DNA of 64,000 bases. It comes from a virus. Of the stretch, positions 6,280-21,534 are shown one piece after another. The translations under genes were made by a program, and so were the position numbers. The stretch lies in the IMG/VR virus record IMGVR_UViG_3300011972_000003, positions 1-64,000 of that record; one strand, 5' to 3'. The first letter of the stretch is position 1; each line of letters opens with the position of its first letter. Under the pieces are notes generated by a model that had not been told where the DNA came from, made no database searches, and worked only from the letters and a program-made list of their open reading frames with translations.

Positions 6280-6505
6280 ATTTAGTGTATGCAGGTTCTT
6301 AAGATGGGATGGATTCAACGTAGATAATTTTATTGAGGAGCTTAAGGGGGAGATAAAACAAGACTCCCTCAAGGTTTCCCCAAATGAGAGTGACCCTACG
6401 ATGATGGACTTAGAGGTTTCAATCCCGCCAGAACTTAGGCATACAGTAGAAAATATATTAAAGAAGTACACAAAAATATACACGTGGATCAATGAACAGC
6501 TATAA
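6266..6505 (+). CDS. hypothetical small protein (79 aa)
   Basis: Short ORF filling the gap between neighbouring genes, with overlapping stop and start codons on both sides. Confidence 0.3.
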   Translation: MEEHRFSVCRFLRWDGFNVDNFIEELKGEIKQDSLKVSPNESDPTMMDLEVSIPPELRHTVENILKKYTKIYTWINEQL

Positions 6506-8720
6506 TTTTTTCATAGAGAACAGACTCCCGGAAATATTAACATCTTACTATAACAGCCCATTAAATAAGAGAGGTTTTGAGGTGGTTAATATATCAGTCG
6601 TTCACCCAAAAGTAGAGTTATCAAGAGCAATAGAACTCGAGCAAACTTATAATTACGAACTTCTGCTAAGCTACACGAATAGAGAGACAGGAGAGATGCC
6701 AGAGCCTATTGTGATTGAAGTTCCTAAGATGGTTAACGATTCCTTTATTATCTTCGGGAAATACAAAACACCTACTTTAATGCTGGATAACGATAGAAAT
6801 GCTAGGTTTTATGAGACTCAGTTCGTTATTGATCCAGATAAGACCTTTAACTACGAAACAGGACTCTTCAAATATATAGACAGTGAGGGGAATGAAGTAG
6901 TGATTGATGTTAATGCTATAGAGGAGTTACCGGAAGAGGCTAGAAAGGTTGATAAGAGTATACTAAAGAAGATTGAAATTAAGTTTAACCTGGATAAGCC
7001 TATAAATGAACTAACTAAAGATCTACTCATTCAAGCTAAGGAGAGGTTCGCAGGTTATAATGACAAAGTCGAAGACCATATCCTAGACAAGAAGGTTTTA
7101 ACGGTTCAAGCTGGTTTAGTTAATTTCATAAAGAGTCACAAGAAAGAGATCTACACAAGAATAGCTTCAGATTTACCAAGGAGAGGGAAGATTTATGCTA
7201 GTGAGATGAACAAATATATCCGTAAGTTCTTTTCACATGGAGGTATGATCGATAATCCTTCTAAAGTAAACTCTCTGACATTCTCTGCGTTATCTAGAAG
7301 GATTAAACTTTCAGAGTACACAGAGTATAACAGAAGCTTAGTAGACATCATAGACCCAATTAGAACTCCAGAAAATGCCAATGCGAATATCGTGAATGAG
7401 CTTAATGTTTGTTCTGTTATAGATGAGGATGGTGGGATTTCAATAAGAGTTCACGAGTTAGATTTTAAACCAGTTGTCCTTTCGTATATTGATTATTTTG
7501 ATGCTTATATAATTGACAACCAGAGTGTAGACTACGTTAATAAGAAAATCAATCCTAAAGTTAAAGTAAGAAGGAGAGGAGAAGTAATTGGAGAGTATAA
7601 GTTATCTGAAGTGCCTAAACCGTGCTATATAGATGCTTCTGCTGATGATAAACTTTCTTATTCAACTAGAAGGATACCGATGATTAACTATACTGACTCA
7701 ATTAGGGTATCAATGGGAGGAAACATGAGTAACCAAGCTGTTGAACTTATAAACCCAGATGTACCAGCAGTTAGTTCAGGACATGATGATGGAGCTAAGT
7801 CTCACCCTTTAAATATCTATGCATTATCTTCAGGAGTAGTTGATTATAAGGATAGAAATGTAATTAAAATAAAGGATGAGAAGGGAAGGTCTGTTGAGTA
7901 TAGATCCCACTTAGTTAATTCTATGTATGACCTAAACGTTGTGGTAGATCCTAAGGTAGAAGTAGGTGATCATGTTAATATTGGGGATACGATCTTTGCA
8001 CCTAGGAATATAACCTCTGAGTTTAGATTAGGAAAGAACTGTAGAATAGCCTTCATGCTTCACGGTAATAACTATGAGGATGGGGTAATAATGGGTTCTC
8101 ACTTGATTCCTAAATTCGCTCACATTGCAGTTAAGGACTATATCTTCATTCTAAAACCTGAGTCTGAGCTTACTTCTATTATGGATCTAGGAAAGGCTGT
8201 AGAGGAAGATGAGCAGATACTTGGAGTTAATGAAAGGATGTCTACTGAGGATTTAGATTTCTTGGCTGGAGCTGTGGATTATGGTAGAGTAAGTAAGCTA
8301 AAGGGATTCTTCATGACGGAGGGTCTAAGAGTGCCTAAGGATTTTGGGAGGGGTTACTTTACAGATATTATAGTTCAGAAAGGGAATGTAGAATCAGATC
8401 CAAATACAGAGCAAGTTATTAATGAAGTATTTAAGAGGTATAAGGCAGCTAGAAAGGAGGTAGCAAATATTGGTGAAATTCCAGAGAGCTACTTAAACTT
8501 GCCAATGGAACAACCAGAACCTCCTCAAATAGATTACAAATACATGATTAAAGTTCGCTTATTACAGGTCAATGAACTCAAGGTAGGGAATAAGATAACA
8601 AATAGGTATGGAAGTAAAGGTCTATGCTCACAAATTATTCCTGAAGATGAGATGCCAAGAACAAAAGATGGGCAGTTGATTGATGTGATAATGAATGCGG
8701 ACAGCACCGTAAAGTCGACT
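6492..8720 (+). CDS. DNA-directed RNA polymerase beta-like subunit, exon 1
   Basis: EVPKMVNDSFIIFGKYKTPTLMLDNDRNARF resembles the beta N-terminal region [51 protein letters not shown] resembles GQNVLVAFMPWNGYNYEDS. The C-terminal NRYGSKGLCSQIIPEDEMPRTKDGQLIDVIMNADSTVKS resembles [36 protein letters not shown]. The reading frame then hits a stop while the homology continues in exon 2. Confidence 0.75.
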
Positions 8721-8974
8721 TGTTGCGGTGGGTAAACCTTGTGAATTGCTGGGATATCCTACATGTGGTGGTGAGGACAATCAGCAGCCCTTATGGGTTC
8801 AACGACTATCGAAACTGTAGTAAAGGAGTAGAGTACACTTAAGCGAGTGGAAGCGCAAGGATAGAGGGTTAAACCTTTATGTGATATAGTCTGAACGTCC
8901 TTAGAAATAGGGAGCTGGAGTAATTTCCGGGATAAGAAGTAGCGAGCTTATCTGAACATAATTGAGCAAGAAAG
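8721..8974 (+). ncRNA. group I self-splicing intron, no ORF, interrupting the RNAP beta gene (boundaries approximate, within about 10 nt)
   Basis: The coding homology of beta breaks at ..STVKST and resumes in frame at [11 protein letters not shown] (cf. MNIGQILETHLG). The intervening 254 nt contain P7/R-like GGGTTCAACGACTATCGAAA (8795..8814) and S-like GATATAGTCT (8883..8892). A U precedes the proposed 5' splice site and a G ends the intron. The element is homologous to the intron in the topoisomerase gene. Confidence 0.6.
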
Positions 8975-9589
8975 ATAGTTTCTCAGCTACTTGAACTAGG
9001 ATTATCTAACTTATCAAGAGCGATGTATGCCAAGTTTGATAAAGATAGAAACCCTAAAGTAATGAGAGATGAACTAAGTGACATAATAAACCCTAAACTA
9101 GCATCTTACAGTGATAAACAAATCTTAGAGTACCATGACAGCTTAAAAGATAAACAGATATACCCAATAGTAACAGGAAACTTTGCTAAGGATATATCGG
9201 CTAAGCTAAGAAAGTATTCAGATAAGTATAAAGTAAGTCTAGATGGGGAACACCTTTATACGAAATCAGGAAGACTCTACACAGAGAACAAGATTTTAGT
9301 AGGAGATATGTACCTTATGAAACTCTACCAACTACCAGAAAAAGGAGCTAAGGTAACTTCTGATAATATGAAAGGAAAGAGACCGGTACTTGGAGCTAAC
9401 TTTAGGAATGAGGGACAGAGTTTAGGAGAGATGGAGTTCTGGGCTTATTCAGCTAATGACCTCTCTGAACTTTTAACTTACAATAGAGATAGAACTAAAC
9501 TACAAGACTCGGCTAAATTCCTTACAGAGTTATTGAAGCTAGGGTTAGAGTTTGATGGGAATTTAAAGGACAAAAAACAGATTAAATAA
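8975..9589 (+). CDS. DNA-directed RNA polymerase beta-like subunit, exon 2
   Basis: [21 protein letters not shown] resembles [58 protein letters not shown] resembles [39 protein letters not shown]. The listed ORF starts at the Met at 9023, but the frame is open from 8966. Confidence 0.7.
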   Translation: [204 protein letters not shown]

Positions 9590-9590
9590 A

Positions 9591-9875
9591 ATGAGAGTAT
9601 TAAAATTTGGAGCTATGTGGTGTGATAAGTGCTCCGTATTGTCTAAGTTAATTAAAGAGTCAGACTTAGATTTACCTGAGATTGAAGAAATAGATTTGGA
9701 TGAAGAACCTGAACTAGCTGAGAAATATGGGGTTCAGACTTTACCTACTATTTGTTTTGTGGATGATCTAGGTAAACTCCTTAAGAAATCGGCAAGAGCA
9801 GCTGAGACTAAACAACCACTTACACCAGAGATCATTTTAAAGGAATATACTAAACTAAGAGAAGAACATGAGTAA
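9591..9875 (+). CDS. thioredoxin-like protein (94 aa)
   Basis: WCDKC (CxxC) active-site motif near the N-terminus. A cis-Pro region is seen at GVQTLPTICF. The size matches the Trx fold. Confidence 0.65.
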   Translation: MRVLKFGAMWCDKCSVLSKLIKESDLDLPEIEEIDLDEEPELAEKYGVQTLPTICFVDDLGKLLKKSARAAETKQPLTPEIILKEYTKLREEHE

Positions 9876-10116
9876 TCTAGAGTTAACAAGAATAAAGGTG
9901 CTGGTTAAGAGAGATACGATGGATACAACTTTCTTAACTGTAGAGGGGAATATAAAGGAAACTGGTACGATATTTGCAGTAGGAAAAGACTGTGAGCACT
10001 TACAACCTGGAGATAGAGTATGGCTAGGACACAGAACTGGAGTAAAGTTAAATTACGAAGGGGAAGAGGTAGAGCTTATGGATGAAGATGAGGTTTTAGG
10101 AAAGATATTAAGTTAG
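9868..10116 (+). CDS. co-chaperonin GroES/Cpn10 homologue (82 aa)
   Basis: RIKVLVKRDTMDT..TIFAVGKD..LQPGDRVWLGHRTGVKLNYEGEEVELMDEDEVLGKI aligns along the whole length with GroES [58 protein letters not shown]. Confidence 0.7.
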   Translation: MSNLELTRIKVLVKRDTMDTTFLTVEGNIKETGTIFAVGKDCEHLQPGDRVWLGHRTGVKLNYEGEEVELMDEDEVLGKILS

Positions 10117-10382
10117 TGATGATTCAGGTAGCATTAGTAGTAGCAGATTGGTGTAATGGTTGTCATAAAGTCCTTGAGAAAATAGAGGCATCCGACATCA
10201 ATCTTGACTACCTGAAAATAGCGGTCTTTGAGGAGAACTTAGAGCTGTGTAACCAAGCTGGAGTCAAATCAATCCCTACAGTCCTGTTTTTAAGCCATTC
10301 TGGGACACTTCTCGATCGGATTGACAGTGACATAACCCCAGAGAAAATAGAAGAAAAGTATAACAAATTAAAAGAAGAATAA
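10116..10382 (+). CDS. thioredoxin-like protein (88 aa)
   Basis: WCNGC CxxC motif. GVKSIPTVLFL matches the Trx cis-Pro region. Second Trx-fold gene, flanking GroES. Confidence 0.6.
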   Translation: MMIQVALVVADWCNGCHKVLEKIEASDINLDYLKIAVFEENLELCNQAGVKSIPTVLFLSHSGTLLDRIDSDITPEKIEEKYNKLKEE

Positions 10383-10383
10383 A

Positions 10384-10608
10384 ATGAAAAAAGGAATTAT
10401 CGCTACAGCATTTGCATTATTTGTACTAGTAAGCTGTAAAGACGAACAAAAAGAAACATTAATAACAGAAGAAGTAACGATTGAAGCTATTAAAAATGAC
10501 TCAGCTTACTTCTCTAATGGAACGTCTGCACCTCTTGAATTAGCAGGAACAGATGTAGCAGAAGGGGATGTGGTAGAGCTGAAGTATATTGTAAAGAAAA
10601 AGAAATAA
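10384..10608 (+). CDS. small lipoprotein (74 aa)
   Basis: Signal peptide with lipobox MKKGIIATAFALFVLVSC. Confidence 0.5.
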   Translation: MKKGIIATAFALFVLVSCKDEQKETLITEEVTIEAIKNDSAYFSNGTSAPLELAGTDVAEGDVVELKYIVKKKK

Positions 10609-10611
10609 TTT

Positions 10612-10959
10612 ATGAGGAAGGTAATTGCAGTTTTAGGGATCACTCTTAGTTCACTGGCTTATTCACAACAACAATATGCTTCTTACTATGGTGACAACTT
10701 TCATAACAGGAATACAGCATCAGGTAAAAGGTTAAATATTTATGGAGACCACTGTGCACATAAGACATACCCTTTTGGAACTAAACTTTTAATAACAAAC
10801 ACAAATACTGGAGCTACTGCCGTTTGTACTGTAATTGATAGAGGTCCGTTTGTAAAGAATAGAGTACTAGATCTTACAACGACAACTTTTAAGCAATTAG
10901 GTGGAAAACTCAGAGACGGCTTAATTCCAGTAACAGTTAAAGTTCATGAGCAAAGCTAA
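10612..10959 (+). CDS. RlpA-like double-psi beta-barrel (DPBB) protein with signal peptide
   Basis: ASYYGDNFHNRNTASGKRLN...AHKTYPFGTKLLITNTNTGATAVCTVIDRGPF matches the RlpA/DPBB signature ASWYG..FHG..TASGE...AAHKTLPFGT.V.VTN..NG.SV.VRVNDRGPF. Confidence 0.6.
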   Translation: MRKVIAVLGITLSSLAYSQQQYASYYGDNFHNRNTASGKRLNIYGDHCAHKTYPFGTKLLITNTNTGATAVCTVIDRGPFVKNRVLDLTTTTFKQLGGKLRDGLIPVTVKVHEQS

Positions 10960-11303
10960 CAAAATAGATATTCAAACCCTCTCTTGGAACCAGCATATTA
11001 GACACAGACCAGGCATGTACGTCTCGAATGTGGATAACCCGACTGTGATTCTAAGGGAGGTTATTGATAATGGAATAGATGAAGTTTTAGGAGGTTACGC
11101 TTCAAAGTTAGGATTTAAACAAGTAGGGGATTTCTTAATGGTATATGATAATGGTAGAGGTATGCCGATTAACCTTAAGAATGACCCAACTAATCCTAAA
11201 GTAAAAATAACCTCTGCCGAAATAGCCACCTCTCGTATGAATTCAGGTAGTAAGTATGAGAAGAATGAGGTCGCAACTGGCATGAATGGTGTGTCATTGA
11301 TTT
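10946..11303 (+). CDS. type II topoisomerase ATPase subunit (GyrB / T4 gp39-like), exon 1 (GHKL domain)
   Basis: HIRHRPGMYV resembles VRKRPGMYIG. REVIDNGIDE resembles YEVVDNSIDE. DNGRGMP resembles DNGRGIP. GMNGVSLI resembles GLHGVGVSVV. The frame hits a stop at 11309 while the NALS motif continues in the downstream exon frame. Confidence 0.7.
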
Positions 11304-11634
11304 TCAGTTAGTTACGCACTCCTCTAGGGAAACTTAGGGGTAATAAAGTCCAAGAACTGCTGGGATAAACTCGTTAAGTAGTAAGTACCAAAGTGTGACA
11401 ATCTTACTAATAGAGACAATCAGCAGCCTTTAGATTAACTAGGGGTTCAACGACTATCGAAAGGTTCGCCGAGTAGAGTACGCTATAAGTCAATAATGAT
11501 AGTGGAAGCATGGACTACCCTAACGTAAAGCCGAGGGTAAAGATATAGTCTAGCCTTAGTGGAGACACTGAGAAGTTCATAGGAGAACTGCATAGGTTTG
11601 ACGAGCCTGTGTGACTAAAAGCGAGGAACAAAAG
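11304..11634 (+). ncRNA. group I self-splicing intron, no ORF, in the topoisomerase II gene (boundaries approximate)
   Basis: Joining 11303 to 11635 reconstitutes GMNGVSLISSNALS (cf. GLHGVGVSVVNALS), with a U before the 5' splice site and a terminal G. The core contains GACAATCAGCAGCC (11415..11428), GGGGTTCAACGACTATCGAAA (11442..11462) and AAGATATAGTCT (11540..11551). These are the same blocks as in the RNAP beta intron. Confidence 0.6.
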
Positions 11635-13133
11635 CATCTAACGCTCTATCTTCAACTTATGTATTATGTTCAAAGGTTACAAAGGATAACTATAAAACCA
11701 GCATAAAGAAAGTAGAAGAAGCGTATAATAAGAATAAAGATGTTTACTACCTGATAGAGTTTAAAGAAGGGAATAAGGTTCGTGAAGATGTACTTAGTTT
11801 GGAGGAGATATTTAAAAAGTACAAGTTGAAAGTGAAGTTGGAGTTTAAACCTTCTACCCTCGTATTCTTTAAACCAGATTATACACTTATCCAATCACCT
11901 AACTATGAATTACCGCTTACAAACCTAGCTCTTGTTAAGTTAATTGTTAAGGAGACTACGAAGAAAGAGGTAGAGTATTTTATAGAAGGTAAGGAGGTTG
12001 AATATGAACTCTTTAAGTGCCCTCTAAATATGACAATAGGGAAAACCAGACTCTTAACAACCTTTGATTTTGATACAGATTTAACTAAGGGAGTATCTAA
12101 GGGATCAGTTAACTCACTTGTTGTTAATAGAGGTCTACATATAAGAGAGATGGAGAATGCTTTAAAGGAAGGGCTTAGAGTGACTTATAATTTAGATGAT
12201 GTTTATGTTCAGTTTGTTTTGAAAGGACTTAACTTATCTATAATACTCTTAGCTAATGAAGTAGGGTTCTCATCTCAAACTAAGGAAAATCTCACTCAAA
12301 TAGATGGTTGGGATAAAAGTTGTAGAGAGAAGTTAATTGAAGAGGTTACTAAGTTTTTAAAGAAGAATAAGGCTGAGTTTGAAGAGCATATTGAGAGAGT
12401 TAAGGAGTTTACCGCCTCTATGAACAAACTTAAAAATATGGACTTCATTAAATCTAAGGTTATCCTCTCTTCTGATATTCGTAAAAGTAAAGGAGGTAAA
12501 GAGATTAGTAAGCTTAGGGATTGCAGCACCAGTAATCGAGCGGATGCAGAACTTTATATCGTAGAGGGAGATTCGGCAGCAGGTTCAATTACATCAGCGA
12601 GAGATTCTAAAGTGCATGGAGTTTATCCGCTCAGAGGTAAGGTGCTGAACTGCCAGAATAAGTCTTTAGAGCAAGTATTAGAAAACAAAGAGATAAGAGA
12701 TTTAATTAACGCTATAGGTGCAGGGATTAAAGGGTATGAACTAAAAGAGAAGCCGAGATTTGGAAAGATTATAGTGGCTACTGATGCTGATGATGACGGT
12801 TATTCTATTCAAGCTTTAGTTCTAGGAGTATTTGGAGAGTATATGCCGCACTTAATTGAGAAAGGATATGTTTACTGTTTAGTTCCACCTCTATATAAGC
12901 AAGAAGGGAAGTATTATTATGACGGAGAGGAGAAAGGATTAAATAGGAATAAGAAGTTCACTCGATATAAAGGGCTTGGTACAATGAACTCTGAAGATGT
13001 AGAAGAAACGTTAATTAAGAATAAGAGGCTGAAACAAGTTACTTTGGATGACCTAGATTATGCTAAAGAAATCCTCGGTACAACTTCAGCTAAGTATGAC
13101 CTAATGAAAGAAGCTGGGATAATTTATGGCTAA
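11635..13133 (+). CDS. type II topoisomerase subunit, exon 2 (transducer + Toprim)
   Basis: Toprim motifs YIVEGDSAAGS (cf. EGDSAGGS) and IIVATDADDDGYSIQ (cf. IMTDADVDGSHI). The listed ORF starts at TTG at 11799, but the frame is open from 11619. Confidence 0.7.
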
Positions 13134-14445
13134 GAAGAATAATAAAGTAGTAACCGAGTCTATTGGAGATATAGTTTCATTCGGGTATACAGAGTTTGGG
13201 AAATACATTAATACATCAAGAGTGTTTCCTAGGCTTCTCGATGGACTTAAACCTTCCTATAGACGTGGTATTTATGCATCTTATTTAGGAGGAAAGGATT
13301 ATGCAAAGTCAGCTGAGGTTTTAGGTAATATGATGAAGTTCCACCCTCACTCTACAGATGGGACGTATGAATCACTGGCAAAGTTTACGCTCTGTGGTAT
13401 TTTAGAAGGAGAAGGGAGTTTTGGTAGAGCTGATATTCTAGGAGATTCTGATGGTCCAGCTGCTGCTCGTTATACCGCTATTAAAGTATCAAAGAAACTC
13501 AGAGCGATGATAGAGCCAGTGTTAGACCTCGTCCCATGGCAAGATAGTGAGGTGAATGGAAATATAAAAGAACCGTCATACCTTCCTACACCATTTCCGT
13601 TATCCTTCTTAGTTGATAGGGTTTCTGGATTAGGGATTGGAGTTTCAGCTATCTTACCAACGTTTTCTATGGAGAGTATGTATGAAGCTTATATAACTAA
13701 TGACCCTAAGAAGCTGAAGTATAGAACTAAGGGACTTAAGATTATAGCAAAAGATTCAGACTTAGATGCACTATGGAAAACAGGGAAAGGATATCTAACT
13801 TACCAGTATGCCAAAATAACAAAGGGAGATAGGGAAGTTCTTATAGAGGGTGACCCAAGTAGATTTCCTATTCAGTTAGATAAAGGTGGTAAGGGAGATG
13901 ACAAACTATTTATGCAGTATAGAGAAGAGGGAAGAATATTAATTGACAACCTCTCCGACAAAACAAAACCAGGACTTCTAAGAGTTTACCTTTCACCGGG
14001 AACTAGAGGAGTGGATATAGACTGGCTGCATAAATACCTAACAGAAAAAGCTACCCACAAGGAAACGTATATGATTAATGTTACTGATGGAGAGACTGTT
14101 AGAACTATAGGGATTAGAGAGTGGATAGATATAACTTACAATAATTACATAAACCTACTGAACTTAAACCGGGATAACAAATTAAAGAGCCTAGAGTTTA
14201 GTAAGAAAGTTTACCTAGCTATGCCTGAAGTGGTTAAAGTATTTCTAAAGGATACGAGTGTCACAAATGAGCAGCTGGCAAAGAAGACCAAAGTAGATTT
14301 AGAGATTATTAAAGTTATTATGTCTAAGCCTATAGGTACACTGAGAAAGACTGATTCAGAAGCTAAGATTAAAGAAATAGAAAAAGAAATAAAAGCACTG
14401 AAGAAGTTTAAAGCGGAAGAATTTATCAAAGAACACATATTTTAA
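13126..14445 (+). CDS. type II topoisomerase DNA breakage-reunion subunit (GyrA / T4 gp52-like)
   Basis: SRVFPRLLDGLKPSYRRGIY resembles RALPDVRDGLKPVHRRVLY. HPHSTDGTYESLAKFT...GSFGRADILGDSDGPAAARYTAIKVSK resembles [40 protein letters not shown], including the catalytic Tyr region. Confidence 0.7.
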   Translation: MAKKNNKVVTESIGDIVSFGYTEFGKYINTSRVFPRLLDGLKPSYRRGIYASYLGGKDYAKSAEVLGNMMKFHPHSTDGTYESLAKFTLCGILEGEGSFGRADILGDSDGPAAARYTAIKVSKKLRAMIEPVLDLVPWQDSEVNGNIKEPSYLPTPFPLSFLVDRVSGLGIGVSAILPTFSMESMYEAYITNDPKKLKYRTKGLKIIAKDSDLDALWKTGKGYLTYQYAKITKGDREVLIEGDPSRFPIQLDKGGKGDDKLFMQYREEGRILIDNLSDKTKPGLLRVYLSPGTRGVDIDWLHKYLTEKATHKETYMINVTDGETVRTIGIREWIDITYNNYINLLNLNRDNKLKSLEFSKKVYLAMPEVVKVFLKDTSVTNEQLAKKTKVDLEIIKVIMSKPIGTLRKTDSEAKIKEIEKEIKALKKFKAEEFIKEHIF

Positions 14446-14814: not shown

Positions 14815-15231
14815 ATGAGCACAAACAGAAACAAAACAGGAAAATTAAACTTGAACGTACAAATGAAACAAGCTATCGATTTAAGTTTAGCTTCAGGAGT
14901 ACCAGTTTTATTCCTGTCAAATCCCGGATGTTTCACTGAGGATACCAAAGTTATAACTGACAAAGGGGAATTAACTTTTGGAGAACTTTTAGAGAGACAT
15001 AATCAAGGGGAAAAATTTAGTGTAGTTTCTTGGGATACAGAAGCTCAGCAAGAAATTAACCCAGCTATGAAGTCAGCGTTTATCACAAAAGAGGTGGATG
15101 AGCTTATTGAAGTAGAGTTAAGTAATGGAGAAGTTTATAGATGTACTCCTGATCACTTACACCTACTTGCTGACGGAAAGACTTGGGTAGCTGCTGAGGA
15201 ATTAACAGTAGGACAAGAAGTAAAGGGGTAG
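14815..15231 (+). CDS. MoxR-like AAA+ ATPase N-extein (38 aa) fused to a split-intein N-fragment (IntN, about 100 aa)
   Basis: GVPVLFLSNPG is the start of the Walker A motif. It is immediately followed by CFTEDTKVITDKGE (intein block A, Cys1 at 14929..14931) and ...YRCTPDHLHLL (block B, TxxH). The protein ends at a stop after about 100 intein residues, as split-intein IntN fragments do. Confidence 0.7.
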   Translation: MSTNRNKTGKLNLNVQMKQAIDLSLASGVPVLFLSNPGCFTEDTKVITDKGELTFGELLERHNQGEKFSVVSWDTEAQQEINPAMKSAFITKEVDELIEVELSNGEVYRCTPDHLHLLADGKTWVAAEELTVGQEVKG

Positions 15232-15237
15232 AAAATT

Positions 15238-16257
15238 ATGGAAGAGATTAGCAGACTTTTTTATGTGAATTTCAGTGTTAAAGATTTAGTAGAGTATACC
15301 GGTGGAGATCAGTTTATAGATTTATTTCTCCAAGCTAAAGGGTATAAAATCTACAACTTCTTTAATAACCTGACAAACCAGCACTACGTAGGGGATAATT
15401 CATCAACTATGCAGGAGCGTCTGTTTAACTCTCTATTCGGACATTTTACCTACTTAAGAGAACAAAGGGACTATGGTGTAGATGGGAAGTACTTAGATAT
15501 ATTAGAGTACGGGCCAGAGAACTTTTACATTAGAATCTTACCACCTATTAATGGACATACTTACGATCAAGAAAAAGATGAAGAAGTGTGGATTAGTAGG
15601 CTTAATGCTTTTGTAGGGGATTTAAATGAGCTTAACCTTCCGGGATACAATAGAAGTAGAACTGGAAAGGGAATTTATTTAAATGAACCTATAAGACATG
15701 AAAAGATTTGTGTAAAGGGTAAAGACGGGTGTTATAAATTCATTTTTCCAAGCGAGCTAACTGAAGAGTTTATAGAGGTTGATTCAAAGGAATTTTATTC
15801 AGAGATGGGGAAACGGGGTATGCAGACTCACAGGGAAAATGGAACACACGTATTTAACAAAGCTCACCAAGTAAAACTACAGAAAGCTGGACTTAAATCT
15901 CAAAAGGAAAATGGTACAGGAATCTACAGCCCAGAAGTTAGAGAGAAGGCTTTTTATAATAGTCGTAAATCTCTAAGGGAAAGGAAAGTAGGTAGCTGTC
16001 ACGATCCAGAGCTTCAGAAAAAGATTAGAGAGTATGCCACTAAGGTATCATTCTTTAATAGGCTCAATGAAAGTATCCAGTTAATCTATGATATGTTTTA
16101 CAGAGGGACGCCAATTAATGAGCAGAGTTATAATTACGTGAAAACAAACAAACACTTCTCGTATAAAAAACTTCTGGTAATCCCTAAAATTATACCCCTC
16201 ATCATAGTCAATAACTTAATAAATAATAACAACAGTACACATTATGGAATCAACTAA
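15238..16257 (+). CDS. free-standing ORF (339 aa) between the split-intein halves; candidate homing endonuclease (family not recognised)
   Basis: It lies exactly between the IntN and IntC genes. Its end overlaps the IntC start by 14 nt. No LAGLIDADG, HNH or GIY-YIG motif was recognised with confidence. Confidence 0.4.
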   Translation: MEEISRLFYVNFSVKDLVEYTGGDQFIDLFLQAKGYKIYNFFNNLTNQHYVGDNSSTMQERLFNSLFGHFTYLREQRDYGVDGKYLDILEYGPENFYIRILPPINGHTYDQEKDEEVWISRLNAFVGDLNELNLPGYNRSRTGKGIYLNEPIRHEKICVKGKDGCYKFIFPSELTEEFIEVDSKEFYSEMGKRGMQTHRENGTHVFNKAHQVKLQKAGLKSQKENGTGIYSPEVREKAFYNSRKSLRERKVGSCHDPELQKKIREYATKVSFFNRLNESIQLIYDMFYRGTPINEQSYNYVKTNKHFSYKKLLVIPKIIPLIIVNNLINNNNSTHYGIN

Positions 16258-17566
16258 AATAACAGTAAAAAGCATAAAAAGAATTAAATTAGAAGCACCA
16301 GTAAAAGTATATGATTTGGAAGTAGATCACCCGAGTCATAACTTTAAATTAGCCGCTGGGAACTTCGTGCATAACTGTGGGAAAACTACGATTGTGCAAA
16401 AATACGCCAAGGCTAATGGATATGGATATGTAGGAATTAACGGGGGTGAGTATTCTCCTGAAGATATCCTAGGTTTCCCAGTGAATCAGAATGGTGAAGC
16501 AGTAAACCTAAAGCCGGACTGGTTCAAGAAAGTGGAGGAAGAATCTGCTACTCATGAAAAGGTAATCTTATTTATTGACGAGTTAACTACCGCTTCTGAG
16601 TATGTACAGTCTCCGCTATTGAAGGTGATCTTTGATAGAATGGTGGGTCAGAGAAAGTTACCATCAAATGTAGAGATTATTTCTGCAGGTAACTATCAGG
16701 AGAATCTAGGGCAGAACTTTGACCTTATCTCTCCAATTATTAACAGATTCATGGTGTATAACTTAATATCTGTGACAAAGGAGGACTTCCAGTTGTTCCT
16801 AGACGCTGACTTCGCCGCTACAATAGACTTTAGAGAGTCACCAGATGAAGTAGAGGTTGATGAGAAAGTTATCCAAGAGGCACTTATGGACTTCATCGCG
16901 GCGAAAGGGCTTAGTCTAGATGTAATGAATAATACTGAGCTTTCTGATTTATATAGAGGGAGAAGTAGAGTATTCAACCCGCCAACATGGAGATCTGTAG
17001 GTAGACTTAAACCACTCCTACACGCCGCTGCTAAGAAAGGTCTATTAGGGTCTATGGTAACTAAAACTCTAGTAAATGGTCTAATTGGATTCCTACCTGA
17101 TAAAGAGCTTCAAGGTTCATTCAACGGAGATGTGGGAGAAACTCTAATAAATCTTCTAAAACAAAATCCAGCTCTATCTAATTTAATGAAGACTGCGGTA
17201 ACGTTTAAAGATGTTGAGTGGTTCTTAGATTCAAACATAGAGAAAGGAATTGATGAGGCTAAACTTCAAGAATTCTTAGAGATGTTTGATAAGGATAGTA
17301 AGATCTTAACCTTTGGTGAGGCTGAGAAACTGATTGATAACTTCTCCTCTAAACTATGGTCAATCAAGACTACTTACCTTAAACCTAAATTAGAGAACAA
17401 AGAGATTAAGCCAGCGGACAGTAAAGCTTATATTAGCAAGTTCTCAGAAGGTATTAACAAGGTGATTGATGTACTTGAGAAATTAGCCAAGAAAGATGAT
17501 ATTCACGAGCACAACATAGTTAAGAATAAGAGAAAGTCTGTTGAATCAGTTAATAGAATCGGGTAA
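16244..17566 (+). CDS. split-intein C-fragment (IntC, 44 aa) fused to the MoxR-like AAA+ ATPase C-extein
   Basis: KVYDLEVDHPSHNFKLAAGNFVHN matches intein blocks F and G (VYDLxV..HNF...hVHN), followed by the +1 Cys. CGKTT then completes the Walker A motif begun in the N-extein (SNPG|CGKTT). Walker B is at ILFIDELTTAS. IISAGNYQEN...LISPIINRF resembles the MoxR sensor and Arg-finger region. Confidence 0.75.
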   Translation: MESTKITVKSIKRIKLEAPVKVYDLEVDHPSHNFKLAAGNFVHNCGKTTIVQKYAKANGYGYVGINGGEYSPEDILGFPVNQNGEAVNLKPDWFKKVEEESATHEKVILFIDELTTASEYVQSPLLKVIFDRMVGQRKLPSNVEIISAGNYQENLGQNFDLISPIINRFMVYNLISVTKEDFQLFLDADFAATIDFRESPDEVEVDEKVIQEALMDFIAAKGLSLDVMNNTELSDLYRGRSRVFNPPTWRSVGRLKPLLHAAAKKGLLGSMVTKTLVNGLIGFLPDKELQGSFNGDVGETLINLLKQNPALSNLMKTAVTFKDVEWFLDSNIEKGIDEAKLQEFLEMFDKDSKILTFGEAEKLIDNFSSKLWSIKTTYLKPKLENKEIKPADSKAYISKFSEGINKVIDVLEKLAKKDDIHEHNIVKNKRKSVESVNRIG

Positions 17567-17568
17567 AC

Positions 17569-19101
17569 ATGAGAAAGGATTATGTAAAGAAAGTAGATGA
17601 GTTTAACAGCAAATACTACGTTAACTACATCTACGAAGACATCTCAGACAATTTAGATCCGAGTCACATGGGAGTTCCTATTGCTGGGTTAATTCAAAAG
17701 GATATAACTCACTGGAAACTTCTGATGAGGGAGAGCGTGTTTGAAGATAAGGAGAGTAAAATAAGAGAGAGTGTTATATATCATGAGTATGGACACGCTT
17801 TCTTTGCTCACCACCTCCTAGCTTATAAGGGTTTAAAGACTCTGGAGGGGATTATTAACAAACCGGATTATGTAGAAAGGATGGCCAAAATAAGCGGTCG
17901 TCCTAAAATCTACATAAAGGCTCTTCTATCTAACCAGCAGTTTATATTCAACCTTCTTAACATTGCTGCAGATTGTGAGATTAACTCTAAGATCTTAACT
18001 CTGGAGGATGTAGAAGCTATAGACCAGGCCTTTGAAGCTGACTCTATCCACCCATCTAAGTATGCATTCCTTGAGGGTAAAACTTATCTTGAGTACGTAG
18101 AAATGGTAGCTGAGTATCTAAACTTATTCCTACCACCAAAACAACAAGATCAACAGGGAGGCGGAGACGGACAACAGGGAGAAGGAGAAGGCGAAGGTGA
18201 TGGTCAAGGTGGAGGTTCTGGAGAATGGGATTTATCTGGAATGCCTGGCTCTGGTACTGGATCTAACTTTATTACACCTGACATGATCGAGAAAATGGTT
18301 GATGAAGGTTTGATAGATGAAGATGGGAACTTGACAGATAAAGGTAAGGAGCAGATGAAGGAGCTTAAGAGTTCTGGAGGTGAATCTAAAGAAGGTCAGG
18401 GAGAGTCTAGTGGAAATAATGGTGAAGATGGAGAACAAGAAGGTGGAGCAGGAAAGCCAGACCCTAGATTCCAAGATAATGGTAGAGGGAACTCAGGAGG
18501 AGCAGTACTAACTAGGAATACTCAGAATATCTTAAAGTCTATGGATGATTTGTTTAGAGACTTGAGAAATAAAGAGGTAACTAAAATGACTACTACAAGA
18601 AACCTATTTAAGAATCAATTAAGGGGTCGTAGTGGTAATATGTACGTTCCAGCTCTTAAGATGAACCCAGCTAAGGTAAAGGTTGAACAAATGACCTTCC
18701 TTGTTGATGTCTCCGGGTCTATGGATGAGCGTTCTATTTTCGGTATTATAAACGATATCGCAACTAGAGTGAAGAAGATAGGTCTAGATAGGGTTAGGCT
18801 TATTACATGGAATACTGGATTTGTACAAGACTTGATGATAAGAGATTTTGAGCCTAAGAGAGGTATGCTTCGTATTGGAGGTGGTACTGATCTAGCTAAA
18901 GGTTTAAAACATATCAGAGAGCTTGACGAAGGTGTTCCTATTGTAGTAATATCTGACCTTTGTGATGACATGAAAGCTTGGAATAGAGAGTTTGACAAAA
19001 TAAAAGATCCCAAGTATGTTGTTACTCTAGGACATGTAAATAAAAGTGACGTAAAAGCGATAAACAAGGATGTGAAAATCTTTGAGAGCGATTACGATTA
19101 A
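17569..19101 (+). CDS. von Willebrand factor A protein with N-terminal HExxH metallopeptidase-like domain (MoxR partner, DUF2201-like architecture)
   Basis: VIYHEYGHAFFAHH carries an HExxH motif. A Gly/Glu/Gln-rich low-complexity linker follows. FLVDVSGSMDERS is the MIDAS DxSGS motif, and ..GGGTDLAKGL matches vWA. Confidence 0.7.
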   Translation: MRKDYVKKVDEFNSKYYVNYIYEDISDNLDPSHMGVPIAGLIQKDITHWKLLMRESVFEDKESKIRESVIYHEYGHAFFAHHLLAYKGLKTLEGIINKPDYVERMAKISGRPKIYIKALLSNQQFIFNLLNIAADCEINSKILTLEDVEAIDQAFEADSIHPSKYAFLEGKTYLEYVEMVAEYLNLFLPPKQQDQQGGGDGQQGEGEGEGDGQGGGSGEWDLSGMPGSGTGSNFITPDMIEKMVDEGLIDEDGNLTDKGKEQMKELKSSGGESKEGQGESSGNNGEDGEQEGGAGKPDPRFQDNGRGNSGGAVLTRNTQNILKSMDDLFRDLRNKEVTKMTTTRNLFKNQLRGRSGNMYVPALKMNPAKVKVEQMTFLVDVSGSMDERSIFGIINDIATRVKKIGLDRVRLITWNTGFVQDLMIRDFEPKRGMLRIGGGTDLAKGLKHIRELDEGVPIVVISDLCDDMKAWNREFDKIKDPKYVVTLGHVNKSDVKAINKDVKIFESDYD

Positions 19102-19138
19102 ACAATAACTAACAAATCTTTAACTAACTATATAATTT

Positions 19139-20137
19139 ATGATTTTAAGTATCGACTGTGGGTACGGACACTTTAAGTACTGTATCTACGATGAAAAAAC
19201 AAGTAAAATTATTAAGTTAGATAAAGAGGTTACAGGTGTGATAGAGGTGCCAGAAGGAGATTCATCCATGGTTACCTCTGTTGCAACCTACCACCACTTC
19301 GATGGAAAAAGGTATTTAGTGGGTGAGCTGGCGACAAAACTAGACCGGCTCCCTATTGATACTTTAACTTACGAAGGATTCAAGGAGGTAGGACCAATAC
19401 TAATCTCTTATCTACTTAACAAATTCCAATCAGAAGGTATTGAAAAGATCGCTTTGGGGTTGACCCCCGTGATCTGGGATAAGCGTGAAGATTACAAAAG
19501 CTATATCTTAGAGAAACTTAATTTGCCTTCCGAAAAGATAGATATTCATGTTCAAGGTCTTTCAGGTCACGCTACTTATTCACAGTACGGACTAGATATA
19601 AACCCTGATGGAAAAATCTCTATGGAAGCTAAATCTGCTAACTATTTTGGACTGGACGTTGGGTTTAATACAATAGACACTTACCTTGTTTTAAATAACT
19701 CTCTCCTCGATTATGGGATTAAAGGGTTTGCAAATAAAGGTGTAGTTCTTGTAGCAAATAAAATTAAAACCCATATCTTTGAACACCTTGGAATCTCTAT
19801 AAATGATGTTGAAGCTAAGGAAGTGGTAACGATGGGAGGTTATAAGAAGAGAGGTAAGTTCCACGATTTATCAGACAAGATCACTGAGTTTATCGTAGAG
19901 TACCTAACTTCAACCTTCAATATGTTAGAGGAGGAGTATGGAGATCAGTTTAACAAAGTAGATAATATTCTTCTATTTGGTGGAGGAGCTGAGATAATTA
20001 AGATCTACATGGAGAAGTCAGACGTTATTAGAAAAACAATAGCTGACCTTTATGGAGATGAGTTCCTATTACTACCAAAAGATAAAGCAGAGTATTACAA
20101 CACAATCGGATATTCACTATTAAGCAGCAAGAAATAA
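19139..20137 (+). CDS. actin-like ATPase (ParM/Alp family)
   Basis: Phosphate-1 motif ILSIDCGYGHFKY. Phosphate-2 motif YFGLDVGFNTIDTYLV. Adenosine motif ILLFGGGAEII. C-terminal connect-2 motif IGYSLL. Confidence 0.6.
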   Translation: MILSIDCGYGHFKYCIYDEKTSKIIKLDKEVTGVIEVPEGDSSMVTSVATYHHFDGKRYLVGELATKLDRLPIDTLTYEGFKEVGPILISYLLNKFQSEGIEKIALGLTPVIWDKREDYKSYILEKLNLPSEKIDIHVQGLSGHATYSQYGLDINPDGKISMEAKSANYFGLDVGFNTIDTYLVLNNSLLDYGIKGFANKGVVLVANKIKTHIFEHLGISINDVEAKEVVTMGGYKKRGKFHDLSDKITEFIVEYLTSTFNMLEEEYGDQFNKVDNILLFGGGAEIIKIYMEKSDVIRKTIADLYGDEFLLLPKDKAEYYNTIGYSLLSSKK

Positions 20138-20138
20138 G

Positions 20139-20702
20139 ATGAAGACAGTAACATTTGTACACACCTCAGATGAATTAGTTTTAGAGGCAGTAAAGAAAGC
20201 ACTATCAGAAGGGTATGGTAAGGAGTTTGACAATATACTAATCACATCCGAAGAACTACCTGAACCTGAAGAGAATTTCCTAAAGACCCAGTGCATCCAG
20301 TTTCAAGTTAAGAGAGATGTAGAGGCTATGATTTCAGCTGATACTATTATAATTGACACAAACGACTGGAACCCTTATACTTGGTTTACTTTAGGAATGG
20401 CTTATAGAGTGGCTTGGCTTAAGAATAGAAAAGAGCTGATTACTGTTGGAGAGCATAGCATAAGTGAAATCCAAAAGTACCTAGAAGAGTGGAATGATGT
20501 ATATAAGAACTGGGTAAATGGAAATCCTGTAGAGTTTAAGTTTGATGTTAATAGAGCTTCAGATGTTCTTGCTTGGGTTAGACTTGGATACCTTTGGGGA
20601 GATGTAAATAATAACTACCATATTGTATCTAAACTTGTAGGAGACCCTCAGCCTAGTGACTATATTATTAAGTTCTTATCAACCGATGTAGCTTATGAAT
20701 AA
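20139..20702 (+). CDS. hypothetical protein (187 aa)
   Basis: ORF immediately downstream of the actin-like gene. A weak Rossmann-like pattern is present (ADTIIIDTNDW..TLGMAY). Confidence 0.45.
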   Translation: MKTVTFVHTSDELVLEAVKKALSEGYGKEFDNILITSEELPEPEENFLKTQCIQFQVKRDVEAMISADTIIIDTNDWNPYTWFTLGMAYRVAWLKNRKELITVGEHSISEIQKYLEEWNDVYKNWVNGNPVEFKFDVNRASDVLAWVRLGYLWGDVNNNYHIVSKLVGDPQPSDYIIKFLSTDVAYE

Positions 20703-21534
20703 TATGTTTGAGTTTCTGATTAAAAAGTTACATGTCATTAAGTTAGTTGTTTTAGCTCTCATTATTGCAGTAGTGTGGTATGGGTATAGGAGTATGGTGA
20801 GAGTAGAGCCTAACTATGAAGGTGTAATGATGTCTAACTTTGGAAGGAACGGGAAATCTGATTTTAATGTGGTAACAGGGAGACAATGGACTCTACTGCC
20901 TGGAACAAGATTATACCAAGTGCCTATGTTTGAGACTTCAGGGGATCCAGATCAGGTTACTATTTCAGCTAAAGATGCAGGAGTATTTACAGTTGACCCT
21001 TCTTACCAGTATCAGCCAATTAGAGGTAGAGGTGTAGATATTGTATTTAGTTATAAGCATCTTGGAGTGGAGGACCCTAAAGTTATGCTGGATAATGTAG
21101 AGGTCTCAATCTTAAACAAACTCGTAGTAAATGCCTATAGAGAAGAAGCTAGAGAGTATACTACAGATGGGCTGATGAATAACCTGAATGAGTTTGAAAA
21201 GAAAGTAGAGAATAGACTTAAGAAGGACTTTGAGGCTAAACACTTTCAACTAACCAATCTAACTTCTGGACTTAAACCTCCTAAATCAATGGAAGACGCT
21301 ATCGAAAGGAGAAACAACATGATCCTAGAGAAAGAGAAAGTTCAGAACGAGTTGGAGGTTTCTAAAATGAATCTGGAGAAAGCTAGGATAGAAGCTGAAA
21401 CAAATAAGGTTAAATCCAAAGGCCTAGATGAAAAGCTACTACAAGAAAAATGGATAGACGCTATTAGAGAGACTGAAAATAAGGTGATCATTACAGACGG
21501 AAAAGTCCCTGCACCTATAATTATAAAAGAGTAA
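20695..21534 (+). CDS. SPFH/Band-7 (prohibitin/HflK-like) membrane protein
   Basis: N-terminal TM segment LVVLALIIAVVWYGY. The SPFH-like core runs from GVMMSNFGR to HFQLTNLTSGLKPPKSMEDAIERRNN, which resembles GITLLDVNFQAARPPEEVKAAFDDAI. A C-terminal coiled coil follows. Confidence 0.6.
   Translation: MNNMFEFLIKKLHVIKLVVLALIIAVVWYGYRSMVRVEPNYEGVMMSNFGRNGKSDFNVVTGRQWTLLPGTRLYQVPMFETSGDPDQVTISAKDAGVFTVDPSYQYQPIRGRGVDIVFSYKHLGVEDPKVMLDNVEVSILNKLVVNAYREEAREYTTDGLMNNLNEFEKKVENRLKKDFEAKHFQLTNLTSGLKPPKSMEDAIERRNNMILEKEKVQNELEVSKMNLEKARIEAETNKVKSKGLDEKLLQEKWIDAIRETENKVIITDGKVPAPIIIKE

Follow-up and report, generated by a model that had tools for sequence, protein, structure and literature searches.

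A GroES-like gene between two thioredoxin-like genes

The DNA analysed here (the window) is a stretch of 64,000 nucleotides, positions 1 to 64,000 of the virus record IMGVR_UViG_3300011972_000003, and belongs to a large, myovirus-like phage with a genome of ~185 kb and 36% G+C that is known from metagenomes only. On the plus strand, between 9591 and 10382, we found three consecutive small genes in which a GroES/Cpn10-like gene is flanked on either side by a thioredoxin-like gene. The first thioredoxin gene, Trx1 (9591..9875), codes for 94 aa with the motif WCDKC at residues 10-14 (MRVLKFGAMWCDKC). The GroES-like gene (9868..10116; 82 aa) overlaps it by 8 nt (ATGAGTAA), and the second thioredoxin gene, Trx2 (87 aa, motif ADWCNGC), runs to 10382 from an ATG at 10119 located 2 nt past the GroES stop; this is the likelier start, the alternative being an in-frame GTG at 10116 that would yield 88 aa. 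A first-pass annotation, made from the sequence alone, had placed three open reading frames (ORFs) with these motifs, and with overlapping or abutting stops and starts, exactly at these positions, and on both counts it was borne out.

When the window was compared with 16 related IMG/VR contigs, the ratio of nonsynonymous to synonymous polymorphism (pN/pS) was 0.10 for Trx1, 0.06 for the GroES-like gene and 0.18 for Trx2, at synonymous divergences (pS) of 0.23, 0.30 and 0.36 respectively. These ratios are similar to that of the neighbouring RNA polymerase gene (0.09), and all three genes were intact in each relative examined. Purifying selection on the three of them at such a substantial synonymous divergence indicates that they are genuine genes and not chance ORFs. 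Most likely they are three small accessory genes that act independently of each other.

The GroES-like protein

The product of the middle gene is a protein of the Cpn10/GroES fold and family. Its match to the Pfam family Cpn10 (PF00166) is marginal, 22.4 bits against a cut-off of 21.1, and PHROG 3188 'co-chaperonin GroES' was matched with an E value of 4e-6, so that the similarity noticed in the first pass is significant by a narrow margin. A phmmer search against 1.8 billion representative proteins gave 26 matches with E<=1e-3, and the 17 that were retrieved all look like Cpn10, comprising short Cpn10 proteins of 83-92 aa and tandem double Cpn10 proteins. The GroES-like protein aligns over its full length with the 83-92-aa proteins and with E. 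coli GroES. One of the relatives, P0009, is located in a Cpn10-Cpn60-double-Cpn10 cluster, an association that connects this family branch with chaperonin function.

The AlphaFold model (predicted local distance difference test, pLDDT, 84.7; predicted template modelling score, pTM, 0.74) is of low confidence only at residues 22-25, within the loop. Compared by Foldseek with the structures in PDB, its matches at ranks 1-34 were all Cpn10/GroES chains (template modelling scores ~0.7), including Cpn20 and, at rank 31 and with 10% identity, gp31 of phage T4. Neither this protein nor any of its 83-92-aa relatives has the roof hairpin. The mobile-loop region, between the first and second strand, has 16 residues (TMDTTFLTVEGNIKET) versus 22 in E. 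coli GroES; it contains no conserved glycine and the region of the GroEL-binding tripeptide reads F-L-T-V.

Viruses that encode a co-chaperonin alone are common (PMC5649160). Since the roof hairpin is likewise missing from gp31, CocO and several virome clusters (PMC5649160), its absence is not decisive for function. The loop could nevertheless be taken as a sign that a protein with a GroES fold does not work as a co-chaperonin, either blocking or retuning the host GroEL or playing an unrelated role as a small beta-barrel. Such a reading would find room in the shorter loop without conserved glycine, in the threonine within the hydrophobic tripeptide and in the marginal sequence scores, and the fold does also occur in non-chaperonin domains such as the N-terminal domain of alcohol dehydrogenase, which appears among the lower Foldseek matches. 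We consider it unlikely. True Cpn10 chains account for each of the 34 best structural matches, the alignment with GroES is full length and includes the position of the loop, and the loop is disordered in the model as expected of a mobile loop. A polar residue in the tripeptide is found in 23% of viral co-chaperonins (PMC5649160), and selection on the gene is strongly purifying (pN/pS 0.06).

Several more of the matches in the GroES searches were double Cpn10 proteins of 173-201 aa, and one metagenomic contig (L087, 1908-4552) carries, one after the other, genes for a Cpn10, a Cpn60 and a tandem double Cpn10 of 201 aa. These double proteins may be a Cpn20-like form.

Two paralogous thioredoxins

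Both outer genes code for proteins of the thioredoxin fold, Trx2 according to its structural model and Trx1 according to profile and PDB sequence matches. Trx1 matches Pfam PF00085 well above the cut-off (36.2 versus 23.5 bits, E 6.2e-9) and also PHROG 22, and its matches among PDB sequences are thioredoxins (best E 3.5e-9). Trx2 is slightly under the Pfam cut-offs (22.2 versus 23.5 bits and 24.8 versus 27) and matches PHROG 22 'thioredoxin domain' (E 2.9e-6) and, along residues 9-84, the thioredoxins in PDB (E 1.3e-4). The AlphaFold model of Trx2 (pLDDT 93.8) has the topology beta-alpha-beta-alpha-beta-beta-alpha, and thioredoxins made up all of the 50 best Foldseek matches in PDB. Two CxxC thioredoxin-fold genes around a Cpn10/GroES homologue, as first proposed, are supported by the profile, PDB sequence and AlphaFold/Foldseek comparisons alike.

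The alignments of both proteins begin around residue 20 of classical thioredoxins, indicating that the N-terminal strand and helix (beta1-alpha1) are missing. In Trx1 the active site is W10-C11-D-K-C14 and the cis-proline motif L51-P52-T53; in Trx2 they are W-C-N-G-C and I-P-T. The canonical WCGPC motif and the five-stranded sheet are absent from both, the dipeptide between the cysteines being DK in Trx1 and NG, GA, QG or PG in Trx2. Trx1 and Trx2 are 33% identical (BLASTP, E 3e-14), are connected by a single family profile (A4) and share the truncation and a similar C-terminal helix, so that by sequence comparison they are paralogous. The annotation had described them as two distinct thioredoxins; there are indeed two genes, but they are less distinct than was claimed. 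A signal peptide or periplasmic role was considered for them and rejected, given that the CxxC motif starts at residue 11-12 and there is no hydrophobic leader. None of the proteins of the trio came near the NCBIfam equivalog cut-offs (23 versus 109 bits for the GroES-like protein), which indicates that they are divergent members of their families and not orthologues of the cellular proteins.

Variation in the phage population was very different for the three genes, with about 28 clusters at 90% identity for Trx2 (relatives P0033-P0060) versus 4 for Trx1 and 2 for the GroES-like protein. The CDKC of Trx1 is invariant in its four clusters; the dipeptide of Trx2 is polymorphic among strains (CNGC, CGAC, CQGC and CPGC), and the Trx2 alleles look recombinant. 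Positive selection on Trx2, suggested by the many allele clusters, was rejected in view of its pN/pS of 0.18. In thioredoxin-fold enzymes the dipeptide between the cysteines sets the redox potential. Both cysteines and the cis-proline were unchanged in all the relatives of Trx1 and Trx2 aligned, and this invariance of the redox residues favours redox chemistry over a purely structural role.

Distribution of the gene trio

The trio was found in 16 IMG/VR and 8 metagenome contigs, all with a GroES-like protein 95-99% identical to that of the window, and in a more divergent relative, L046 (Trx1 80% identical), where gene order and junctions are as in the window, including the 8-nt overlap. The nearest distinct lineage, L047 (SRR5912593; GroES 49% and type II topoisomerase 54% identical), has a dUTPase gene followed by GroES, by two unknown ORFs in neither of which there is a CxxC motif, and by the topoisomerase, and a home-made hidden Markov model (HMM) of the thioredoxins found none along this 4.7-kb contig. 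In six other contexts of the GroES family (L082, L083, L086, L087, L088 and L089) no ORF resembled a thioredoxin, no GroES lay near the two closest relatives of the thioredoxins outside the group (L084 and L085), and in 19 loci around distant topoisomerase II homologues (L063-L081) neither GroES nor thioredoxin was detected with home-made HMMs. The association is therefore confined to one genus-level group of phages, being present only in L046 and in contigs with a GroES at least 95% identical, and the conservation of the trio across related phages, which had been put forward as a check, does not extend to L047.

Relatives are scarce also in the databases. No match was obtained in GenBank phages by megablast of 8000-13000, by tblastn of the GroES-like protein or, at E 1e-3, by tblastn of Trx1. 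A word-indexed protein search returned only close relatives of the GroES-like protein and of Trx1, the former falling into just two clusters at 90% identity among 5.8 billion proteins. The GroES relative P0008 used as a lone query matched nothing in viral contigs. A search of metagenome contigs with a two-sequence GroES alignment gave only near-identical phages and no intermediate lineage, and the same alignment found nothing in 185,579 species genomes and gave no clue to the host. In agreement with the first-pass statement that such a trio is not a described module, we found no description of it, and a survey of viral chaperonin neighbourhoods gives GroEL, small heat-shock proteins, a kinesin-like protein and a head protein as recurring neighbours and does not mention thioredoxin (PMC5649160).

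Genomic setting and transcription

The trio is preceded by the genes of the beta-prime and beta subunits of an RNA polymerase and followed by genes for a small lipoprotein and for a secreted DPBB/RlpA-like protein, and then by the two genes of type II topoisomerase. It lies in a plus-strand block (436-24674) in which most neighbouring genes overlap or stand only a few bases apart, and the tail and baseplate genes are found on the opposite strand from 25 kb onward. Only 1 nt separates the stop of RNA polymerase beta from the start of Trx1 and, at the other end, the stop of Trx2 from the start of the lipoprotein gene; actually, overlaps or junctions of 0-3 nt run from RNA polymerase beta through the trio to the lipoprotein, DPBB and topoisomerase II genes. 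Between 5500 and 15500 we detected no terminator-like sites and no excess of promoter-like sites.

The three genes are likely co-transcribed. Since the tight junctions continue on both sides, the transcription unit would be the whole stretch 6492-14445 (8 kb) and not the trio alone, and as such junctions are normal across the block the trio is not a delimited operon. The earlier proposal of one transcriptional unit is thus plausible as far as co-transcription is concerned, and fails for the trio as a unit of its own.

Probable function of the trio

The explanation that we favour, with moderate confidence, is that of a gp31-like co-chaperonin acting on the GroEL of the host, two independent paralogous cytoplasmic disulfide reductases, and an adjacency due to duplication and local shuffling. 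The three genes sit in a tightly packed and probably polycistronic block (6492-14445), presumably of early or middle genes, between those for RNA polymerase beta and topoisomerase II. The GroES-like protein would be a minimal viral co-chaperonin forming a heptameric lid on host GroEL during infection, by analogy with T4 gp31, RB49 CocO and many virus-encoded GroES genes, and by the same analogy the phage lid could bias the chaperonin toward phage proteins such as the capsid protein. Here fold and family are observed, and from them we infer lid formation and GroEL binding. Trx1 and Trx2 would be cytoplasmic mini-thioredoxins, that is, disulfide reductases recharged by the thioredoxin reductase of the host; their being redox active is most likely, given the strict conservation of both cysteines and of the cis-proline. 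What is observed in their case is the fold and the conservation of the active site, to which an activity and a client are presumptive additions. Phage thioredoxins typically serve as electron donors to ribonucleotide reductase or to other enzymes of nucleotide metabolism. The flanking arrangement itself would be the product of duplication and of local reshuffling of genes in this one lineage, with no coupling between chaperonin and redox functions.

Several observations weigh against this explanation. Since the mobile loop falls 6 residues short of its counterpart in E. coli GroES, contains no conserved glycine and carries F-L-T-V at the tripeptide, binding to GroEL is not assured, and the sequence support for Cpn10 is by itself marginal (22.4 bits in Pfam, far below the cut-offs in NCBIfam). 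Among essentially all the sizeable ORFs of the window, Pfam searches detected neither a thioredoxin client, such as ribonucleotide reductase, thioredoxin reductase or peroxiredoxin, nor a GroEL gene, and PHROGs run on ten large ORFs of the window gave neither a thioredoxin client nor a phage GroEL; the searches covered the 64-kb window, about 120 kb (~two thirds) of the genome lying outside it. The 8-nt overlap, kept in L046, would allow translational coupling of Trx1 and the GroES-like gene and would fit equimolar co-production of both proteins. Finally, there is a single, moderately distant outgroup with a contig of 4.7 kb, in which a loss of the thioredoxins is indistinguishable from a gain in the phages studied here.

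The location of the genes brings up a different role for the outer proteins. E. coli thioredoxin is the processivity factor of the T7 DNA polymerase, and thioredoxin z (PAP10) is part of the plastid RNA polymerase. One or both thioredoxins could likewise be non-catalytic accessory subunits of a phage polymerase, with Trx1 tied to RNA polymerase beta and the GroES-like gene an unrelated neighbour. Trx1 starts 1 nt after the stop of RNA polymerase beta (0 nt in L046), the neighbours are RNA polymerase beta-prime, RNA polymerase beta and topoisomerase II, no classical thioredoxin client was found among the ORFs of the 64-kb window, and at the position equivalent to Asp26 (E. coli numbering) Trx1 has Lys and Trx2 has Leu. 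We hold this to be quite improbable, since the cysteines and the cis-proline are kept without exception in proteins that vary elsewhere, a pattern that speaks for redox chemistry. Besides, L047 has no thioredoxin near the homologous genes, on a contig that does not reach its RNA polymerase region, and the proposed link is one of gene position.

The first-pass annotation had suggested a dedicated folding and redox system for virion proteins, in which the co-chaperonin and the two thioredoxins, produced as one translationally coupled unit, would jointly fold and keep the redox state of cysteine-containing virion proteins. The overlapping and abutting junctions kept in L046, the purifying selection on all three genes and the presence of one protein family at both flanks of the GroES-like gene are what one would expect of such a system. 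However, the order is not kept beyond one genus, L047 having a GroES without thioredoxins, and GroES and thioredoxin do not co-occur in eight other contexts or in the 19 loci around distant topoisomerase II homologues. Tight junctions are the rule throughout the block, the trio has genes of transcription and replication around it and is distant from the structural genes, which are on the other strand, and thioredoxin is not listed in the survey of viral chaperonin neighbourhoods (PMC5649160). The suggestion thus finds no support here and we regard it as very unlikely. Hardly to be expected, finally, is that the trio works as a genuine unit in this phage genus, the translationally coupled GroES-like lid and both mini-thioredoxins acting together, be it in chaperonin-linked disulfide control of phage proteins or with the thioredoxins as accessory subunits of the multisubunit RNA polymerase of the phage, which would need the chaperonin for its assembly; if such a unit did exist, the variation in the Trx2 dipeptide would tune redox potential or partner specificity.

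With three independent accessory genes as the preferred explanation, the comparative data give no ground for a new chaperonin-redox system and the trio opens no new question in this regard. What it adds to the accessory genes of phages is a highly divergent GroES of minimal size and two thioredoxins truncated at the N-terminus, from a lineage of large metagenomic phages with hardly any annotated relatives, for which sample numbers in the style of the HMP suggest human-associated sources. Should the GroES-like protein function with the GroEL of the host in spite of the short loop, the requirements for a minimal co-chaperonin would be narrowed.

Introns and other features of the region

The RNA polymerase beta gene upstream of the trio contains a group I intron at 8711-8964 (plus strand; Rfam RF00028 matched at 8701-8914 with 53.3 bits, gathering threshold 50, E 5.9e-13), a match seen only when a short stretch was searched alone and missed in two wider searches. 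The insertion interrupts a conserved region of the type 'SRMNxGQxLE'. Removal of 8711-8964 fuses 6492-8710 with 8965-9589 in an ORF of 947 aa (...NADSTVARKIVSQLLELG...), the proposed boundaries obey the U / omega-G rule, and L046 shows the same gap in the gene. A second group I intron was found on the same strand in the GyrB-like topoisomerase II gene at 11293-11623 (RF00028 at 11274-11572, 63.3 bits, E 5.5e-15). Aligned to the intron-less allele in L048, this insertion is exactly 331 nt long. The gene spans 1854 nt in L048, L049, L050 and L059 and ~2180 nt in nine other loci, is uninterrupted in L046 and has a third state in L056 and L060, so that this intron is present or absent among near-identical phages. 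Both introns have long identical core segments in common.

Farther downstream, at 14815-15231, there is a free-standing ORF of 138 aa with a sub-threshold match to an intein splicing domain (28.6 bits against a cut-off of 35.8, E 1.5e-6), and in L046 a TnpB/Cas12f-like gene (11413-12267) lies slightly downstream of the topoisomerase genes. Two introns, an intein-like ORF and a TnpB/Cas12f-like gene suggest a block rich in selfish elements. PADLOC detected no similarity to defence systems.

The lipoprotein that follows Trx2 (10384-10608; 74 aa) has the lipobox LVSC and a mature N-terminus C-K-D-E, which resembles the signal for surface export of lipoproteins in Bacteroidota. The next gene (10612-10959; 115 aa) codes for the secreted DPBB/RlpA-like protein (Pfam PF03330, E 1e-15). 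These two exported proteins may hint at a host among the Bacteroidota.

An unusual set for a phage is found at 16244-21534, where an AAA ATPase, a VWA-domain protein, an actin-like (Alp7A/MreB-like) protein and an SPFH/Band 7 protein are encoded. On the minus strand, from 25000 to 64000, 10 large ORFs of the presumed structural block had no match in PHROGs, and what Pfam recognized in this block was limited to tail-fibre repeats, an SLT domain and a T4 baseplate protein. Reference databases of phages contain very little of this lineage.

Comparison with known systems

In E. coli thioredoxin bound to T7 gp5 and in PAP10/TrxZ of plastids, a thioredoxin is associated with a polymerase, and in the window a thioredoxin gene likewise adjoins that of a polymerase subunit, directly downstream. 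Unlike in those systems, the association is here positional only and the redox residues are strictly conserved. A closer parallel is provided by T4 NrdC and the phage thioredoxin and glutaredoxin genes of PHROG 22, which also code for minimal CxxC folds of ~87 aa among genes of nucleic-acid metabolism. The proteins of the window differ from NrdC and the phage glutaredoxins in being thioredoxin-like by sequence and in forming a pair of paralogues, and their setting differs from that of NrdC in that no ribonucleotide reductase gene was found within the 64-kb window. With cellular TrxA (PF00085) they share the W-C-x-x-C motif and the cis-proline in (I/L)-P-T, and their best matches are true thioredoxins. 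Unlike TrxA, they lack beta1-alpha1 and consist of a minimal four-stranded fold of 87-94 aa, between the cysteines they have DK or NG/GA/QG/PG where TrxA has GP, the equivalent of the buried Asp26 is not kept and the NCBIfam equivalog cut-off is far from reached.

As to the middle gene, the mobile loop of T4 gp31 is longer than that of E. coli GroES, whereas that of the window protein is shorter and has lost the conserved loop glycine. Also unlike gp31, which is matched by structure only, the protein is recognizable as Cpn10 by sequence; with 82 aa it is among the shortest members of the family, and it has no close relative in GenBank phages. In the rest it resembles T4 gp31, RB49 CocO and the GroES of marine viromes (PMC5649160), as a small GroES-fold protein of a large phage with no GroEL gene in view, without roof hairpin and with a polar residue in the loop tripeptide, and by analogy with them its expected role would be to replace the host GroES on the host GroEL.

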